DNA of 31,571 bases, taken from positions 1-31,571 of the IMG/VR virus record IMGVR_UViG_3300029891_000080. One strand, written 5' to 3'. The position numbers and the translations under genes were made by a program. This document shows, one piece after another, positions 1,979 to 18,109 of the stretch. The notes under the pieces were generated by a model. That model saw only the letters and a program-made list of their open reading frames with translations, made no database searches and was not told where the DNA came from. The stretch is from a virus (lineage: Duplodnaviria > Caudoviricetes). Within the stretch, counting starts at the first letter, position 1, and the number at the start of each line of letters is the position of its first letter.

Positions 1979-2215
1979 ATGCATGCCGCGCCCCTGACTT
2001 CGCCCCGCCTGCAGCGAGTGCTGGCCGTGCTCGGCGACGGGCGTGCCCACACGACGCGCGACATCGTGCGGCGCGGTCGGGTGATGGCGGTGAACGCTTG
2101 CGTGGCCGAGCTGCGCGCGCATGGGGCCGAAATTAGCTGCACCGCGCGCATCATCACCGGGCGGCGGAGGTTTTTCTATCTGATGACGAAGGGGCCTGAG
2201 GTGGCGAGCAAATGA
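1979..2215 (+). CDS. Winged-helix-like small protein, 78 aa
   Basis: Start re-called to ATG 1979; RLQRVLAVLGDGRAHTTRDI...VNACVAELRAHG pattern. Confidence 0.7.
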   Translation: MHAAPLTSPRLQRVLAVLGDGRAHTTRDIVRRGRVMAVNACVAELRAHGAEISCTARIITGRRRFFYLMTKGPEVASK

Positions 2216-3054
2216 CGGAGATCATTCCTTCCGTAACCGAGCTGCCAATTGCGTACATCGCGGTGCCGCCTGATCGCTTGCGCCCTGTTTCTGCCGCGAC
2301 GACTGCTGTGCTGCGGCAGGTGATCGGCGAATTCGGGTTCACGGTGCCGGTGCTGGTGCGCAAAACGCGCAATGGGTTTGTGCTCGTCGACGGGGCGAAC
2401 CGGTTGGCGGTCATGACCGAGATGGGCAATGAGACCATCCCGGTCGTGGCGATCACCTGCCGCGACAACGAGGCGCGGGCGCTCGAGGCGAGCCAGAACC
2501 TCGCTGGTGCGGGCATGACGCCTGTTGATGATGCGATTTTTCTTGCGGCCTACAGTGCGGCGTATGGGGAAATGCACCCTGAAACCAGAGCCGGAGTCGC
2601 GGGTGGGCTTGCGAGGCAGGGATTAGCAACGGAACTAAGTTCCTTTGCTGAAACCATTGCCGAGAAGCGGGCTCTGACTGTGCGCCAGGTGAGGAAGATC
2701 GCCCGCGCCGGTCGTTTGATCAGCCGCGACGAAGCATATTGGCTGCGCACCGCGCCGAAAAAGGTGACGCTTGCCGACCTGCTGCTGCTCGGCAAGATCG
2801 GCGACCCAGACGAGCGTAGTGCAGTGGTCGCGGCGCTCGCGGAAGGCCGGAAAGCCACCGCGGCGCGCAAGGCCTATCTGGCCGCGAAGAACGGCGCCGC
2901 GCCTTCGGTCAAGTATCCCGCCGAGGATGGTTTCAAGGCGCTGATCGCGCTTTGGGGGCGGGTACCGAAGGCCTCCAAACGGCGCTTTGCCGAGCATTTT
3001 GCCACCGAACTGCAGGAATTGATCGATCAGGCGGATGGGGAGGGGCAGGAATGA
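2212..3054 (+). CDS. ParB N-terminal domain protein with downstream HTH, 280 aa
   Basis: DRLRPV...GFTVPVLVR...LVDGANRL...ASQNL ParB/Srx pattern; HTH-like FAETIAEKRALTVRQVRK. Confidence 0.85.
   Translation: MTEIIPSVTELPIAYIAVPPDRLRPVSAATTAVLRQVIGEFGFTVPVLVRKTRNGFVLVDGANRLAVMTEMGNETIPVVAITCRDNEARALEASQNLAGAGMTPVDDAIFLAAYSAAYGEMHPETRAGVAGGLARQGLATELSSFAETIAEKRALTVRQVRKIARAGRLISRDEAYWLRTAPKKVTLADLLLLGKIGDPDERSAVVAALAEGRKATAARKAYLAAKNGAAPSVKYPAEDGFKALIALWGRVPKASKRRFAEHFATELQELIDQADGEGQE
2625..2649. repeat. 25-bp near-perfect palindrome inside the parB-like gene (candidate parS/operator)
   Basis: AGCAACGGAACT-A-AGTTCCTTTGCT, 11 of 12 arm positions complementary. Confidence 0.7.
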
Positions 3055-11861: not shown

Positions 11862-13525
11862 CCGCCCCGATCTCGGCCGCAGATTGGGAGCGTCAGCGCC
11901 GGGCCGCCACCGAGGCCATGCCCGACGTCATCGCGCAACTCGGCCTGCCGAAGGTGCTGCTGCCCTATCAGGCGCGCACCGTGTCGCTTCTGGAATCGAC
12001 CGCAGCCCGCGTGCTCTTCATCGAGAAATCGCGGCGCGTTGGCCTCACCTGGGGGCTGGCGGCCTATGCCGTGTTGCGGGCTGGGCGCGAGAAATCGGCG
12101 GGCGGCATGGATGCGATGTACATCTCCTACAGCCAGGAGATGACGCGCGAGTTCATCGACGCCTGCGCGATGTGGGCGCGCGCCTTCGCGATGGCGGCAA
12201 TGGCAGCGGACGAGCTGTTGTTCGAAGACGCAAACCCCGCCGACCCCAGCGACACCAAGCACATCCAGGCGTTCCGCATCCGCTTTGCCTCGGGCTTCGA
12301 GATACTCGCGCTCAGCTCGGCGCCGCGGGGGCTGCGGGGCAAGCAGGGCGTGGTGATCATCGATGAGGCGGCGTTCGTCGACAGTCTGGCAGAGCTTCTG
12401 AAGGCGGCTCTGGCGTTCCTGATGTGGGGCGGGCAGGTGGTTGTCTGCTCGACCCATAACGGCGCCGACAACCCGTTCAACCAGACGGTTCAGGACATCC
12501 TGGCGGGCCGCGCCCCGCACAAGCACGTGCGCATCGATTTCGACGACGCGCTGCGCGACGGGCTTTACCAGCGCATCTGCCTCGTGACCGGCAAGGACTG
12601 GTCGCCCGAAACCGAGGCGACCTGGCGGCAGGAGATCATTGACTTCTACGGCGACGGCGCCGACGAGGAACTGTTTTGCGTCCCCTCCATGAGCTCGGGC
12701 GCTTGGCTGCCCGCGCCGCTGATCGAGGCGCGGATGACCGCCGAGGCGCCGGTGCTGCGGCTCGAGCTGCCGGGCGACTATCTCTACCGCTCGAAGCTTG
12801 ACCAGGCGGTGCTGCTTGCCCCGTTCATCAAGGATCTGGCGGATGCGGTCGCGGCGCTCGATCTGACCGCGCAATTCGCCGCGGGCTTTGACTTCGGTCG
12901 AGTCGCGGACCTTTCAACGCTGTCGTTACTGGCCATTGAACAGCGTCTTAAACGGCGCGAGGCGCTCTCGATCGAGATGCGCAACGTGCCCGGCGACGAG
13001 CAGAAGCTGGTCGTCGGCTCGGTGCTGGAACATGTGCGGGGCCGCCTGGTCGGGGCGGCGTTCGACGCCACCGGCATGGGCTGGACACTGGCCGAAGACA
13101 TGGGCCGCCGTTTTGGCCTGCGCTCTGACCCCGAAGGCTCGGGCGCGATCATGGCGGTGAAATTCACCGAGGAATGGTACCGCCTGCACATGCCGCCGCT
13201 GAAGGCCGCGTTCGAGGACGACATGATCGCGATCGGCGCCGACGCCGAGCACCTGTCGGATCTGCGGGTGATCAAGGTGATCCGCGGTATCGCCCGCGTG
13301 CCGGTGACCCGCGAGGGCGAGAAGGGCAAGCGGCGCCACGGCGACTATGCCATCGCGCTGGCACTGGCGCATTTCGCGAGCCGCATGCGCTGGGTCGAAT
13401 ACGGCTACCGCGCCGCCACGCCCGTGACCGGAGCAGGCAACAATACCGCCGACGCCGACGATGCGCGGCGCGACGACAACTGGTGGCGCCCGCCGCTCGG
13501 CGCGCGCCTGAGAGGAGGCTTCTGA
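11858..13525 (+). CDS. Terminase large subunit (Mu gp28-like), 555 aa
   Basis: LLPYQ, EKSRRVGLTW, IIDEAAF, STHNG, GFDFGR, DATGMG, RRHGD motifs. Confidence 0.95.
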   Translation: MTAPISAADWERQRRAATEAMPDVIAQLGLPKVLLPYQARTVSLLESTAARVLFIEKSRRVGLTWGLAAYAVLRAGREKSAGGMDAMYISYSQEMTREFIDACAMWARAFAMAAMAADELLFEDANPADPSDTKHIQAFRIRFASGFEILALSSAPRGLRGKQGVVIIDEAAFVDSLAELLKAALAFLMWGGQVVVCSTHNGADNPFNQTVQDILAGRAPHKHVRIDFDDALRDGLYQRICLVTGKDWSPETEATWRQEIIDFYGDGADEELFCVPSMSSGAWLPAPLIEARMTAEAPVLRLELPGDYLYRSKLDQAVLLAPFIKDLADAVAALDLTAQFAAGFDFGRVADLSTLSLLAIEQRLKRREALSIEMRNVPGDEQKLVVGSVLEHVRGRLVGAAFDATGMGWTLAEDMGRRFGLRSDPEGSGAIMAVKFTEEWYRLHMPPLKAAFEDDMIAIGADAEHLSDLRVIKVIRGIARVPVTREGEKGKRRHGDYAIALALAHFASRMRWVEYGYRAATPVTGAGNNTADADDARRDDNWWRPPLGARLRGGF

Positions 13526-15168
13526 TGGCCCGCACGCCCACACTGCTGGATCGCTGGGGCCGCCCGATCGAGCGCGCCGTCCTGAAACAGGAGGTCGCCG
13601 CAGCGACCGTAGGTGGCGTGCGCACGCCGATTTCGGGCTATCCGGCCGATGGGCTGAACCCGGTGCGGCTGGCGCATATCTTGCGCGAGGCCGATCAAGG
13701 CGACCCGCTGCGCTATCTGGAACTGGCTGAGACGATCGAAGAGCGCGACCCGCATTATCTGGGCGTGCTCGGTACCCGCAAACGCTCGGTCAGCCAGATC
13801 GACATCACGGTCGAAGCGGCAAGCGATGATCCAGCCGACGTGGTCAAGGCCGATATGGTGCGCGAATGGTTGACGCGCGACGAGCTCAATGATGAGCTCT
13901 TCGACGTCCTCGATTGCATCGGCAAGGGCTATTCCTTCACCGAGATCATCTGGGATACGACCGAAGGCCAATGGCGGCCAACGCGGCTTGAGTGGCGCGA
14001 TCCGCGTTGGTTCCGCTTCGAGCGGCGCGATCTGGCGACACCGGTGATGCTCGACGAAAGTGGGCAAGAGCGGCCGCTAGATCCGTTCAAGTTCGTCTTC
14101 GCAACTCTCAAGGCGAAGTCGGGGCTGAGCCTGCGCTCGGGGCTGGCCCGCGTTGCCGCCTGGGGTTGGATGTTCAAGGCGTTCACACAGCGTGACTGGG
14201 CGATCTTCACCCAGACCTTCGGCCAGCCACTGCGCGTCGGCAAATACGGCGCAGGGGCTTCGGAGGCCGACAAGGACACGCTCTTTCGCGCGGTGAGCCA
14301 GATCGCGGGCGACTGCGCCGCGATCATCCCCGAGTCGATGGCGATCGACTTCATCGAATCGAAGACCGTCGGCGCCAGTTCGGCACTCTACCGCGAACGC
14401 GCCGACTGGCTCGACCAGCAGATCTCGAAAGCGGTGCTGGGGCAGACCGCCACCACCGACGCGATCGCCGGAGGCCACGCGGTCGGCCAGGAACACCGCG
14501 AGGTGCAGCAGGACATTGAACGCGCCGATGCCAAGGCGCTGTCGGCCATTCTCAACCGCGATCTGATCCGCCCCTGGATCGACCTCGAGTTCGGGCCGCA
14601 AAAGCGTTACCCGCGCCTCAAGATCGCGCGGCCAGAGGTCGAGGACATCAAGGGGCTCGTCGAGGCGCTCGGCATATTGGTGCCGCTTGGGATGCGGGTC
14701 GGTGCCAGCGAGGTGCGCGACCGCCTGAAGCTCGCCGAACCTGCCTCGGGAGAGGAAATTCTGGGGCAAATGGCGCCACCTGTTGCGCCGGTCGCACCAG
14801 CGGGCGACCCTCAGGCAACGGATCGGGAGATTAAACGGGTTTCAGGCGAAATTAAACGGGTTGACGGGTTTCCACGACCAACGACAGCCCTCAGCGCGGA
14901 AGGCCCCTCAGCGGCGATTTCTGAGGCCCTCGCGCCAGAAGACATTTTGGCCGATCAACTGGCCGAAGAGGCCGCGCCCGAGATGGCAGCGATGCTCGGG
15001 AAGATCGAAGCGATGCTGGCGGCAGCGGGCTCGCTTGAGGAATTCGCCGAGATGCTGCGGGCGGGGTTTCCGTCGCTCGATGCGTCCGGGCTTGCCGAAC
15101 GGATCGCGCAAGGCATGATCATCGCGCACGGCGCCGGGCGCGCGGCGGTGGAGGAGAGCGGTGGCTGA
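13525..15168 (+). CDS. Portal protein (Mu gp29, DUF935), 547 aa
   Basis: ATG 13525 after GGAGG; EERDPHY, KGYSFTEIIW, FGQPLRVGKY, ISKAVLGQT, HREVQQDI. Confidence 0.95.
   Translation: MARTPTLLDRWGRPIERAVLKQEVAAATVGGVRTPISGYPADGLNPVRLAHILREADQGDPLRYLELAETIEERDPHYLGVLGTRKRSVSQIDITVEAASDDPADVVKADMVREWLTRDELNDELFDVLDCIGKGYSFTEIIWDTTEGQWRPTRLEWRDPRWFRFERRDLATPVMLDESGQERPLDPFKFVFATLKAKSGLSLRSGLARVAAWGWMFKAFTQRDWAIFTQTFGQPLRVGKYGAGASEADKDTLFRAVSQIAGDCAAIIPESMAIDFIESKTVGASSALYRERADWLDQQISKAVLGQTATTDAIAGGHAVGQEHREVQQDIERADAKALSAILNRDLIRPWIDLEFGPQKRYPRLKIARPEVEDIKGLVEALGILVPLGMRVGASEVRDRLKLAEPASGEEILGQMAPPVAPVAPAGDPQATDREIKRVSGEIKRVDGFPRPTTALSAEGPSAAISEALAPEDILADQLAEEAAPEMAAMLGKIEAMLAAAGSLEEFAEMLRAGFPSLDASGLAERIAQGMIIAHGAGRAAVEESGG
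14830..14872. repeat. AT-rich direct repeats embedded in the portal gene
   Basis: ATTAAACGGGTT at 14830 and 14851 (21-bp period); partial third copy ACGGGTTTC at 14864. Confidence 0.75.
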
Positions 15169-16345
15169 CCTCAGCGCCAGTTTCCGGCGCCCCTTTGCCG
15201 AGCAGGTCGCGGCATTCCGGTTGCGGCTCGGCACACTCGCGCCCACCGCCCGCTGGGACGATCTGTGGCAGTCCGAGCACGACCGCGCCTTCATGGTGGC
15301 CGGGGCTACGAAGGCCGATCTGCTGGCCGACCTCGGGCTGGCGGTGGACCGGGCGATTGCCGAGGGTACCAGCCTCGAGACCTTCCGGCAGGATTTTCGC
15401 GGGATCGTCGAGAAACACGGCTGGCACGCCTGGACCGGCGAGGGCACCGCGAAGGGCGAGGCCTGGCGCACGCGGGTGATCTATCGCACCAACATGGCGA
15501 CCTCTTACGCGGCCGGGCGGCACGCGCAGCTGGTGGCGGGCGGTTTTGCATTTTGGGTCTACAAGCACAGCGGCGCCGAGCACCCCAGGCTAGACCATCT
15601 TTCGTGGGATGGAGTGGTGCTCGAGGCGGATCATCCGTTCTGGGCCGCGCACTTTCCGCCCAACGGCTGGGGTTGCGGCTGCAAGGTGTTCGGTGCGCGC
15701 TCGCAGGATGGCGCCAAGCGGGTGGGCGGCAAGCCCGGCAAGGATCTGCCCGACAACTGGAACCGGATCGACCCGAAGACCGGCGCGCCGGTCGGCATCG
15801 GCAAGGGCTGGGCCTATGCGCCGGGCGCAAGTGTCGCCGACACGGTGCTGGCGCTGCGCGGCAAGCTTGATGTGCTGCCGGAGCGGCCGTCGATTGATCT
15901 GATCCAGAACTGGCTCACGTCGGATATTTTCGGAGCATGGCTGCTCGCGCCGCGCGGTGCCTTCCCGTTGGTGCGTATCAGCACCGATCAGGCAGCAGCG
16001 ATCGGCGCCGAAAAGTTGGTGGCGGATATCTCGGTCGAGACTGCGCTGAAGCAGCTGCGCGAGCACCCCGAACTTTCAATCCTCGAATATGCAGAGGCGC
16101 AGCGGGTGGTCAGCGAGGCCACCCGCGTCATTCAGGACGGGCCACGTGCGCTGATATTTATTCTGGATGTTCCCGGCGCCAATGGGCACGTTCTGGTCGT
16201 GAAGGCCACGCAAACAGGCAAGGGGCTGTTCGTGACGAGCTTCCGGCGACTTTCTCGAGATCAGGTGTTGCGTGATGCGGAACTTCGACGGTTGCTTCAG
16301 AGGGCGGAAAAAGGTGCGGGCGGTGGGGCCCCCCTACCCGGATGA
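15161..16345 (+). CDS. MuF (gp30) minor head protein with C-terminal putative PBECR2-like nuclease domain, 394 aa
   Basis: MuF motifs AFMVAGA, IYRTNMATSYAAGR, R..H..WDG, PPNGWGCGC; ~150-aa extension with KQLREHPELSILEY and VVKATQTGKGLFVTSFRR, resembling BECR-fold domains. Confidence 0.85.
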   Translation: MADLSASFRRPFAEQVAAFRLRLGTLAPTARWDDLWQSEHDRAFMVAGATKADLLADLGLAVDRAIAEGTSLETFRQDFRGIVEKHGWHAWTGEGTAKGEAWRTRVIYRTNMATSYAAGRHAQLVAGGFAFWVYKHSGAEHPRLDHLSWDGVVLEADHPFWAAHFPPNGWGCGCKVFGARSQDGAKRVGGKPGKDLPDNWNRIDPKTGAPVGIGKGWAYAPGASVADTVLALRGKLDVLPERPSIDLIQNWLTSDIFGAWLLAPRGAFPLVRISTDQAAAIGAEKLVADISVETALKQLREHPELSILEYAEAQRVVSEATRVIQDGPRALIFILDVPGANGHVLVVKATQTGKGLFVTSFRRLSRDQVLRDAELRRLLQRAEKGAGGGAPLPG

Positions 16346-16420
16346 TCCGGCTACCCCACATGGCGCTCCGATCCGAAGACCGTGCTACGGCCGGGAGAAT
16401 ATTACCGTGTCGCGCCCGCT
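16308..16420 (-). ncRNA. Putative structured, tRNA-like non-coding RNA convergent with muF
   Basis: Own promoter; 7-bp closing stem GCGGGCG/CGCCCGC followed by ACC-UUUUU; cUUCGg hairpin; three further helices; possible pseudoknot. Confidence 0.72.
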
Positions 16421-16426
16421 AGAGGA

Positions 16427-16455
16427 AATATAGCCATGATCACCATCGAACTCAA
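16427..16455 (-). promoter_or_regulatory. sigma70-like promoter for the ncRNA
   Basis: Minus strand TTGAGT (16455-16450), 17-nt spacer, TATATT (16432-16427); A at 16420 is 7 nt downstream and abuts the closing stem. Confidence 0.7.
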
Positions 16456-16939
16456 GGATGCCGAGGTCAGCGCGATCCTCAATCGGCTGGGCGCCGCGAT
16501 GTCGGACCTGACGCCGGTGATGCAGGAGATCGGCGAGCAGCTGGTGTTCGAGACCGAGCAGCGGTTTGCCCAAGGCGTGTCGCCAGGGGGTGCCCCTTGG
16601 GCGCCGAAGTCGGAGACGACGCTCGAGGCCTATGCCCGCCGCGGCGACAAGATCGACTTCCGGCCGCTCTTTGGCCCGAGCGGCAGGTTGCATTCGACGA
16701 TCGATTATCGCGCGGGATCGGATTTCGTCGAAGTCGGGTCGGGTGCCGTCTACGCCGCGGTGATGCAGTTCGGCGCGGGCAAGGGGGCGTTCGGGGTCGA
16801 CGCCGCAGGCCACCCGATCCCATGGGGGCCGATTCCTGCGCGGCCGTTCATCGGGATTTCCGAGATCGATCGCGCCAATATCATCGCCACGGTGACCGTG
16901 TGGATTGAAGGGCTCGCGGCGGGCAGCGACGGGGCTTGA
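16436..16939 (+). CDS. Virion morphogenesis protein (Mu G/gp31), 167 aa
   Basis: ATG 16436 after AGAGG; DLTPVMQEIG, RF...SPGGAPWAP, VGSGAVYAAVMQFG, IPARPFIG. Confidence 0.92.
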   Translation: MITIELKDAEVSAILNRLGAAMSDLTPVMQEIGEQLVFETEQRFAQGVSPGGAPWAPKSETTLEAYARRGDKIDFRPLFGPSGRLHSTIDYRAGSDFVEVGSGAVYAAVMQFGAGKGAFGVDAAGHPIPWGPIPARPFIGISEIDRANIIATVTVWIEGLAAGSDGA

Positions 16940-16991
16940 CCGCCTGGCGCGCGCGGGTGCAGCATTGATCCATCCCGGGTAGCCCGCGTCT

Positions 16992-17037
16992 CCGCACACC
17001 GTTGCGGATGTAACGCGAAGCGATCGGCGGCGATGAT
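16992..17037 (+). promoter_or_regulatory. Candidate late promoter (PI-like)
   Basis: CCGCACACCGTTGCGGATG-21 nt-GATGAT; matches 8903-8948. Confidence 0.75.
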
Positions 17038-17044
17038 CGCCGCC

Positions 17045-18109
17045 ATGAACACCAGGCATCTCACTCTCACCCCGGTCTTGATGGCCGCCCAGGACGCCGC
17101 TGCCAACGCGGCGGCGCCCGACTGGGTGCATCTTCTGCCGGGCAGCGCGGGCGGGATCAGAACCGCCGACGCGCGAGGCCCCTATCATGTGACCGATCCC
17201 GCCACGCTGATCACCGCGTCCTTCGCCGAAGCCGACCGGCTGCCGATCGACGAAAATCATGCGACCGACCTCGCGGCGCCGCTGGGGCAGCCTTCGCCCG
17301 CGCGCGGCTGGATCGTCGAGATGCAGGCCCGTGCCGACGGCATTTGGGGCCGCGTCGAATGGACAGAGGCGGGGCGTGCGCTGGTCGCCGACCGCGCCTA
17401 TCGGGCGATTTCCCCTGTCGTGCTGCACGACACCGCCAAGGCGATCACGCGGATCCTGCGTGCGAGCCTCGTCAACCGACCCAACCTGCGCGGACTGGCC
17501 GCGCTCAATCAGGAGAGCGATGTGAAACCGCTTCTGGAACGACTGGCCGAGCTTTTCGGCCTCGACGCGGCCTCCGGTGAGGACGCCGTTTTCAACGCCG
17601 CTCAGGCGGCGAAGGGCGCCGGTGCTCCGGCGCTGCAATCGCAACTGGCCGAAATCGGTCAGGTGTTCGGCGTCACCGGCGACGGTGCAGTTGTGCTTGA
17701 GGCCGCGCGCAAGGCGGCACAAAAGCCGGGCGAGGCGCCCCAGGTGGTGGCGCTGCAGGCCGAGCTGACCACGGTCACCACACGCCTCAACACACTGACT
17801 GAAAGCGTGGCGCGTGAGAAGGCGACGGGCTTTGTCGACGGCGCGATCCAGGCGGGCCGGGTCGGCGTGAAGCCTCTGCGCGAGCACTACATCGCCATGC
17901 ACATGGAAGATGCCGCGCGCGTCGAAAAGGAAATTGGCGCGCTGCCGATCCTCGGTCGCTCGGGCACTGTTGCCGCCGCGCCGTCTTCGCCCGCGGGCGA
18001 GATCGCGCTGCAATCCGAGCAGACGGCCGCCGTCAAGATGCTCGGCCTCGATCCCACGAAATATGCCGCGACGCTCAAAGCCGAGCGCGCCCATGAGGAG
18101 GCTCTCTGA
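17045..18109 (+). CDS. Prohead protease I with C-terminal scaffold region (Mu gp32), ~354 aa
   Basis: WVHLLP, PIDENH, PARGWI, GIWGRVEWT, YRAISPV, ASLVNRPNL; start 17045 preferred over 17033. Confidence 0.92.
   Translation: MNTRHLTLTPVLMAAQDAAANAAAPDWVHLLPGSAGGIRTADARGPYHVTDPATLITASFAEADRLPIDENHATDLAAPLGQPSPARGWIVEMQARADGIWGRVEWTEAGRALVADRAYRAISPVVLHDTAKAITRILRASLVNRPNLRGLAALNQESDVKPLLERLAELFGLDAASGEDAVFNAAQAAKGAGAPALQSQLAEIGQVFGVTGDGAVVLEAARKAAQKPGEAPQVVALQAELTTVTTRLNTLTESVAREKATGFVDGAIQAGRVGVKPLREHYIAMHMEDAARVEKEIGALPILGRSGTVAAAPSSPAGEIALQSEQTAAVKMLGLDPTKYAATLKAERAHEEAL
17522..18109 (+). CDS. Scaffolding protein Z from an internal in-frame start, 195 aa
   Basis: AGGAGAG SD then in-frame GTG immediately after the protease domain, as for Mu I/Z. 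Confidence 0.7.
   Translation: MKPLLERLAELFGLDAASGEDAVFNAAQAAKGAGAPALQSQLAEIGQVFGVTGDGAVVLEAARKAAQKPGEAPQVVALQAELTTVTTRLNTLTESVAREKATGFVDGAIQAGRVGVKPLREHYIAMHMEDAARVEKEIGALPILGRSGTVAAAPSSPAGEIALQSEQTAAVKMLGLDPTKYAATLKAERAHEEAL

Follow-up and report, generated by a model that had tools for sequence, protein, structure and literature searches.

A conserved tRNA-like antisense RNA beside a phage MuF-fused predicted ribonuclease is a candidate RNA immunity factor

We analysed a 31,571-nucleotide (nt) stretch of a Caudoviricetes genome (IMG/VR record IMGVR_UViG_3300029891_000080, positions 1 to 31,571; hereafter the window). Between muF, which encodes a gpF-like minor head protein with a C-terminal extension, and the next head gene, gene G, the minus strand encodes a structured RNA (core at 16316..16419). 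Homologues confirm that this element is real and that it forms a cloverleaf of about 104 nt, tRNA-like in topology, with a covarying pseudoknot between its D loop and T loop. Comparative sequence analysis makes it probable that the RNA acts as an immunity factor against the neighbouring MuF-fused BECR domain, a predicted RNase, which it would bind as an uncleavable tRNA mimic, so that the pair would constitute a polymorphic phage toxin with RNA immunity. The conserved RNA family that is tied to this phage domain is apparently undescribed.

In the window, the covariance model and covariation define four arms. A closing stem of 7 base pairs (bp) (P1; 16419-16413/16322-16316), evident in the sequence and in the alignment of homologues, encloses a D-like arm (P2; 16387..16408) with an invariant 5-bp stem and a loop that carries the CUCCC strand of the pseudoknot (16397-16393). 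The middle arm (P3; 16365..16385), at the position of an anticodon arm, consists of a 2-bp helix, an internal loop and a hairpin that varies in length and sequence; seven of its seven pairs have two-sided changes, and the alignment contains no conserved anticodon loop. The 2-bp helix (16385-16384/16366-16365) covaries and had been overlooked in the first-pass annotation, which was made from the sequence alone. The T-like arm (P4; 16323..16359), supported by covariation, stacks on P1 through a likewise covarying helix (16359-16353/16329-16323), and its loop holds the pseudoknot partner (16334-16330) and an optional inserted hairpin (16350-16338). The 7-bp closing stem, stacked helix, UUCG hairpin, ACC and U5 tract that the first-pass annotation had named are all present, and the pseudoknot that it had proposed is borne out as 5 bp. 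Our covariance model (R1) matches 16310-16423 at 112.8 bits, the window being part of its training set, and the element occurs once in the genome of the window.

Although the single sequence folds no more stably than shuffles (z scores of -0.47 to +1.29 for nine folds), we judge the element to be real because its homologues support the cloverleaf. A motif scan of viral contigs returned 119 loci, from which we aligned 104 distinct copies, including the window; L092 and copies without the anchor motif were excluded. The search motif partly fixed the D arm and three pseudoknot columns, where no variation is seen, and the invariance of these positions is therefore not evidence. Across the 104 copies, 98.5% of 3,348 cells are paired, compared with 83.0% after shuffling and 35-48% when partners are slid by one to three columns. 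There are 489 two-sided changes, and 21 of 33 pairs, pseudoknot included, have changed on both sides. RNAalifold independently recovered the same cloverleaf (covariation term -6.07; two-sided changes in 19 of 27 pairs), and nearly all of the top mutual-information pairs fall within the cloverleaf and pseudoknot. The pseudoknot is paired in every one of the 104 copies, with one position divided between C-G and G-C (91 and 13 copies) and another among U-A, U-G and C-G (78, 13 and 13), and it pairs in all 63 new metagenome copies as well. The homologues thus have the conserved tRNA-like topology and covariation for which the first-pass annotation had asked. The hairpin inserted in the T loop is missing from 27 of 104 copies. 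Loci found through the MuF C terminus have a closely similar element directly after the stop codon; scans seeded with L016 and L274 returned no additional contigs and L274 alone, respectively. An anti-Shine–Dalgarno role for the CUCC loop was rejected, as this loop covaries with the T loop.

Several arguments of the first-pass annotation did not survive this comparison. It had read the ACC as an acceptor end; NCC follows the stem in 14 of 103 copies and NCCA in one of 103. The cUUCGg loop is found in 11 of 104 copies, and a run of four T residues lies within 15 nt in 23 of 103, so neither is conserved. The ACC, UUCG and U tract are private to the window copy. The Rfam search that the annotation had suggested gave no match for the window at E ≤ 10, and ARAGORN predicts zero tRNAs in it.

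The RNA is predicted to be transcribed from the minus strand from its own promoter. No RNA sample was listed as containing window 15100-17100, which carries no information on expression. A predicted sigma-70-type promoter (TTGAGT-17-TATATT; 16427..16455, minus strand) overlaps the start of gene G and its ribosome-binding spacer, with a predicted transcription start at about 16420; it is one of two promoter-like sites in 2.5 kb (mean of 0.2 in shuffles). The other lies inside gene G (16704-16731, minus strand). In 71 of 104 homologues, a TAnnnT box has its end 4-12 nt ahead of P1, compared with 4 of 103 and 182 of 5,200 (3.5%) in controls. This -10 box is kept in 38 of 55 copies that have no start codon opposite, and at least four of six -35 positions match in 35 of the 71 (8.6% in the control). 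Because, in addition, G-U cells exceed A-C cells (83 versus 13, excluding two nearly fixed U-G pairs), we place the RNA on the minus strand, starting at or just before the closing stem, in agreement with the first-pass assignment. The 38-nt overlap that it reported also stands (muF ends at 16345, the element at 16308). Its view of the MuF tail (16313..16345, plus strand; about ten extra codons) as read-through into an RNA element holds too: most homologues are 382-386 amino acids long, and muF stops before the element or at most 10 nt into it in 80 of 91. Overlap of more than 10 nt occurs in 11 of 91, and conserved overlap with the toxin coding sequence, a feature of type I and cis-antisense RNAs, is accordingly absent.

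MuF (15161..16345, plus strand; 394 amino acids) matches PF04233 over residues 60-176 (E = 1e-11), and its C-terminal domain (15863..16312) is likely, from a structure model and conservation, to be a BECR-like RNase. H302 (16064) is kept in 26 of 28 aligned rows and S360 in 27 of 28; K297 (16049), T359 (with S360 at 16235-16240), R362 and R363 are also conserved, as is a basic C-terminal helix. The AlphaFold model (mean confidence, pLDDT, of 94) places the histidine within the N-terminal helix (58-67 of the model) and the serine in the last strand (122-129). This is the pattern of the PBECR and colicin D active site, the N-terminal helix contributing a histidine and strand 4 a serine or threonine, as given in the excerpted text of PMC5512222; an excerpt of a 2026 preprint also remarks on the preceding lysine. 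The top fold matches are BrnT (Z = 5.9), CdiA-CT (5.9 and 5.1) and colicin D (4.8), modest scores that nevertheless point to one consistent family. The best Pfam match is PBECR3, whose 14.4 bits fall short of the cut-off of 30; weak PBECR3 matches occur in 10 of 28 members (best E = 0.0013). The first-pass label of PBECR2 is not upheld, as PF18810 has no match in the genome of the window or among the 28 members.

In the available parts of Jamet et al. 2017 (PMC5576092), a short open reading frame (ORF) follows 89.4% of 191 MuF toxin genes. In the window, only 90 nt separate the muF stop (16345) from gene G (16436), which leaves no room for an immunity ORF; the window's ORF list contains no small immunity ORF directly 3' of muF, and the RNA element takes the slot. 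A long minus-strand ORF (16385-18094) is taken to be a shadow of the reading frames of genes G and I.

The presence of the RNA follows the state of the putative nuclease site. Against the subfamily profile, 59 non-redundant loci reached 100 bits or more; we dropped L268, in which the frame enters unrelated sequence, leaving 58. When H302 and S360 are both intact, a definition adopted after the data had been seen, a structured element is present in 51 of 51 loci (43 of the window's class, class I; seven of class II; one of a short class). When either residue is changed, the element is absent in six of seven, with gene G within 2-17 nt; the seventh, L202, retains a degraded copy that scores 88 bits, where most others reach 100-120. 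In a subset of 22 loci chosen without C-terminal motifs, the element is found in 17 of 17 intact and one of five changed. The losses show four different substitution sets, and a quick tree requires three changes, two of them forced; a close sister comparison sets L257 and L279 against L258, L260 and L273, which lack the element. Since no intact site lacks the RNA, the order of loss is the one that an antitoxin predicts.

The element is also exchanged with the C terminus. A search with the MuF N terminus identified 48 complete loci, in which the five short MuFs abut gene G (gaps of -8 to 13 nt), so the RNA is missing where the extension is missing, which the first-pass annotation had proposed as a check. 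Two ADP-ribosyltransferase tails leave gaps of 334-340 nt, the size of a small ORF by length alone, and BECR-like tails leave about 60-180 nt. L246 and L247, with N termini 94% and 93% identical to that of the window, have different C termini and different RNAs. The PBECR3-type tails of L250, L265, L275, L281, L289 and L294 are followed by very short gaps (59-64 nt) with similar sequences ahead of gene G, possibly a minimal RNA class.

Class II comprises 30 loci (20 distinct), and 19 follow the same nuclease family. Closing and stacked stems are both retained in this class, as is the CUCCC/GGGAG contact, with 95.7% of cells paired and an invariant pseudoknot. Distant homologues have 60-90-nt versions. 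A loose descriptor of the tRNA-like elbow did not separate real from shuffled sequences; a tighter one, set afterwards, matches 8 of 12 of these distant homologues on the antisense strand and 1.9% of shuffles. A scan with the short-class motif gave 120 loci, zero with a profile match, and L209 has two tandem short-class units behind one nuclease gene. For 17 loci of other classes, Rfam returned no match at the element positions. At L303:1576-1663, just 5' of muF on the minus strand, there is an Rfam match to sRNA-Xcc1 (63.9 bits, above the cut-off). The short gaps of the PBECR2 loci L216-L244 contain, by eye, stems, apparent kissing loops and antisense -10-like boxes, and may hold further RNA classes.

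One other C-terminal family has an antisense pseudo-tRNA in the same slot, which scores 33.3 bits against the Rfam tRNA model (cut-off, 29) and is called tRNA-??? by ARAGORN in 2 of 47 loci. It has canonical D and T loops, and a variable middle arm of 18-35 nt replaces the anticodon. Sixteen of 46 distinct matches to the pseudo-tRNA motif follow genes of that C-terminal family, and about 25 of the 46 look chance-like by eye. By these sequence criteria, tRNA-derived RNAs do occupy the slot, without this proving the descent of class I from tRNA.

Beyond the muF–G junction, the element is distributed in the manner of an antitoxin, with inverted copies, orphans, mixed arrays and a stand-alone nuclease partner, which supports the candidate-antitoxin proposal of the first-pass annotation. 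At L205 and L206, it is inverted relative to L208 (alignment score of 78 versus 24), with a promoter-like pair upstream by eye. At L004, L162 and L163, it lies 0.7-1.4 kb from muF, with other genes between; a cargo ORF at L004:1986-2958 resembles a DNA adenine methylase by eye. At L644 (L644:1506-3063), an IS1595 transposase adjoins a stand-alone PBECR3-like gene that is followed by a class I element; this genome has no MuF match, and the partner is therefore the nuclease domain rather than MuF. This locus could be a toxin–RNA module carried on an insertion sequence.

Many copies have no evident partner. Among 85 metagenome copies, 35 have an upstream nuclease match, 32 do not and the flank is too short to tell in 18; L561, counted among the 32, lies behind a MuF that has a different tail. 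In 150 genomes of the family, 13 match the model, 11 of them at E ≤ 1e-8. One of these strong matches accompanies a MuF nuclease, one a stand-alone gene and nine have neither nearby; seven of the nine orphan genomes lack a MuF match (assemblies 91-100% complete). Orphan copies keep the -10 box in 22 of 31 cases and are found between housekeeping genes, in defence-like islands and in Mu-derived elements. Clusters of at least two units within 900 nt are seen at 10 of 49 orphan-set loci (eight of mixed class) and at one of 70 linked loci. L637:1503-1756 holds two tandem copies between housekeeping genes, one with a CCC/GGG-type and one with a CGC/GCG-type pseudoknot. Orphan copies at L560 and L646 lie beside repeats that resemble clustered regularly interspaced short palindromic repeats (CRISPR; 18 and 10 regular-expression matches, both strands counted). 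We found no match to the element in plasmids.

Class I and pseudo-tRNA units also stand in tandem in small elements that have transposase, ATPase, GemA, head protein T and protease I genes but lack a MuF match; these are records of 4-12 kb and may be fragments. In L508-L511 and L513, GemA, the RNA units, T, a gene for 142 amino acids, protease I and a small helix-turn-helix gene occur without a MuF match. Both transposase and ATPase are present in records G789 and G790 of this set, and ATPase only is listed for G793. On gene content, L508-L511 and L513 are candidate capsid-encoding transposable satellites, although the records may be fragments. At L509:4300-5140, the class I and pseudo-tRNA units come after a third structured unit, which belongs to another class.

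Taken together, the observations form a toxin–immunity pattern, because the RNA is kept with an intact site, lost or decayed with an altered one, swapped with the domain, independent of orientation and hoarded by non-producers. The antitoxin interpretation of the first-pass annotation is thus supported by comparison in its structural, coupling and distributional parts, and is not supported in its appeal to the acceptor-plus-CC end, the UUCG loop, the U tract and the PBECR2 label. In the mechanism that we propose, the host polymerase would make the RNA in lysogens and early after infection, the 5' end being the transcription start, and the MuF domain would cleave RNA of the host, with tRNA as its most likely target. 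Stacking of the acceptor-like on the T-like stem, together with the Watson–Crick pseudoknot between D and T loops, would produce an L-shaped mimic that offers no anticodon loop for cleavage, and this would shield both producer and lysogen. Chromosomes and mini-Mu elements with orphan copies may thereby have acquired immunity against such toxins of other phages.

Several observations count against this interpretation. The fold match is modest, Z = 5.9 being in a range common for unrelated folds; Foldseek returned no match at E ≤ 0.001, and a PDB sequence search returned none. Phage PBECRs may spare tRNA and target messenger RNA or CRISPR RNA, according to the portion of Iyer et al. (PMC5512222) available. 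Class I itself lacks a canonical T loop and CCA. The window domain and the pseudo-tRNA-linked domain are related weakly (hhalign, 6.8%, E = 0.005), and common ancestry of class I and the pseudo-tRNA is therefore not established. The elbow descriptor is not general: it matches 1 of 27 PBECR2 and 2 of 8 PBECR3-like loci, and also 2 of 15 negative controls; we do not extend the claim to PBECR2 loci because of the first of these counts. The coupling to the active site depends on a definition of 'intact' (H302 and S360) made in hindsight, on kin that are not independent and on a quick tree only. In L258, L260 and L273, the histidine is kept and the changes fall in the last strand and the helix, a possible RNA-binding surface. 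Orphans outnumber linked copies by about 9 to 2 in the family genomes, so the RNA could have a job of its own, and the 49-locus orphan set includes L644, later found to be linked, and the near-duplicates L528, L590 and L640.

Some of these points would fit an RNA that serves as a cofactor or cargo of the MuF domain, in which case the two would form a ribonucleoprotein and be packaged, or be active, solely in that form. RNA and protein residues are lost together, which suits a cofactor as well because the changes in L258, L260 and L273 could hit an RNA-binding surface; the basic C-terminal helix is conserved; the RNA class follows the C-terminal family; and RNA binding has been predicted for the inactive Mu gp30 domain, as far as the excerpted text of Iyer et al. 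goes (PMC5512222). We nevertheless regard a cofactor as unlikely, given promoter-bearing orphans in MuF-less genomes, the mixed-class arrays and the absence of any variable guide with a target in the phage. Moreover, an intact protein without RNA is found at 0 of 51 loci, although deletion of the RNA would take one step. An equally low probability attaches to a general tRNA decoy with its own job, such as inhibiting the tRNA-targeting defence nucleases of hosts or rivals, to which the MuF link would be secondary. Orphans are indeed common, and some lie in defence-like islands (with MmeI/SocA, with MqsRA or beside the CRISPR-like repeats). Against such a decoy stand the strict dependence on the His/Ser site within phages, the pairing with a stand-alone nuclease at L644 and the several RNA classes, each linked to one C-terminal family and gathered in arrays.

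That the RNA is a cis-antisense regulator, or a messenger RNA structure, that controls the expression of muF or gene G seems very improbable. Its position opposite the late operon, a 38-nt overlap with muF in the window and a promoter over the gene G start speak for such a role. Against it, 80 of 91 homologues have little or no such overlap, copies occur inverted, displaced or as orphans, and invariant unpaired bases and a tertiary pseudoknot would be unnecessary for antisense pairing. Least probable of all is a prohead or packaging RNA like the phi29 pRNA, acting through intermolecular loop–loop pairing: the head-module position, the orphan arrays beside Mu gpT/gpI genes in mini-Mu elements and complementary loops that could pair between molecules are outweighed by its absence from close relatives with the same head module (L258/L260/L273 versus L257/L279, and the short MuFs), by a class that tracks the nuclease and not the head genes, and by orphans between housekeeping genes.

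A wider and much more speculative version of the RNA-immunity interpretation is possible, although we hold it to be doubtful. Temperate phages would package a MuF-fused tRNase in their heads and deliver it along with the DNA, and only DNA encoding the matching tRNA-derived decoy, transcribed immediately from a host promoter, would survive. The toxin would thereby license its own genome and kill recipients of satellite or transducing DNA, and capsid-encoding mini-Mu satellites and chromosomes would counter with decoy arrays of several classes, in an RNA-based arms race between polymorphic toxins and immunity.

If RNA immunity is correct, this would be a polymorphic toxin family with RNA immunity factors, which would join protein immunity and the repeat-type type III antitoxins as a third route, and it would account for many MuF extensions without an immunity ORF. 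It would also provide a handle on the function and target of PBECR domains, for which profile matches at E ≤ 0.001 number 1,086 clusters at 50% identity, and would mean that tRNA genes have been recycled as decoys. Several RNA families absent from Rfam are added, and a toxin-by-RNA specificity matrix is predicted.

The setting of the locus is that of a Mu-like transposable prophage, as identified by its gene content: Pfam matches across the window include transposase, AAA ATPase, GemA, lysozyme, terminase, portal, MuF, G, protease I and major head T. The portal gene (13525..15168, plus strand; PF06074, E = 9e-100), in the context of a Mu-like head module, directly precedes muF, and gene G (16436..16939, plus strand; virion morphogenesis, PF05069, E = 2.5e-29) follows the element. 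Among the early genes, a ParB-like gene (2212-3054; E = 0.001) lies just 5' of the transposase. Named relatives of the locus belong to Rhodobacteraceae/Paracoccaceae, Pseudomonas and Nitrospirae. Cultured phages gave no DNA match to the locus (best E = 0.2, in gene G) and no protein match.

No description of the RNA was found in abstract-level literature listings, although the supplementary motif tables of large screens could list it unnamed. The portions available of PMC5737381, PMC11090510 and bioRxiv 10.64898/2026.08.28.747851 contain no such RNA, and the PBECR paper (PMC5512222), within its excerpted text, names no associated RNA or immunity factor ('noncoding' has 0 occurrences).

As in MuF polymorphic toxins, in the parts of PMC5576092 available, MuF follows the portal gene and has an exchangeable C-terminal domain, with a short downstream cognate element that is swapped with the C terminus; here, that element is a structured antisense RNA with a promoter motif, not a small immunity ORF. 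The window domain differs from described PBECR domains (PMC5512222) in scoring below every Pfam PBECR cut-off. With tRNA (RF00005), the RNA shares a four-way cloverleaf, a 7-bp closing stem with a stacked T-like stem and a contact between D and T loops. It has no anticodon loop and no conserved CCA, and a 5-bp Watson–Crick pseudoknot replaces the T-loop. Known tRNA mimics that invite comparison are bacterial Y RNA and the P1 c4/P4 CI RNA; for a c4/CI-type comparison, the phage has two complementary 12-mers beyond the locus, and the conserved D arm includes neither of them. In orphan immunity gene clusters of polymorphic toxins, immunity-like units of several classes likewise stand in tandem without a toxin, whereas the units here are RNA genes of about 70-125 nt. 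In type III toxin–antitoxin systems (ToxIN/AbiQ), a pseudoknotted RNA inhibits an RNase, and tandem antitoxin repeats lie upstream in one operon. The window shares with them a pseudoknotted RNA that adjoins a predicted RNase gene and is proposed to be a direct inhibitor. Its RNA, however, is single-copy, downstream, antisense or inverted and under a separate promoter, its BECR-like domain is not ToxN and is fused to a virion protein, and there are several RNA classes and orphan arrays. We consider the family new because a defining feature of each known family tested fails, while the RNA would work like a type III antitoxin.

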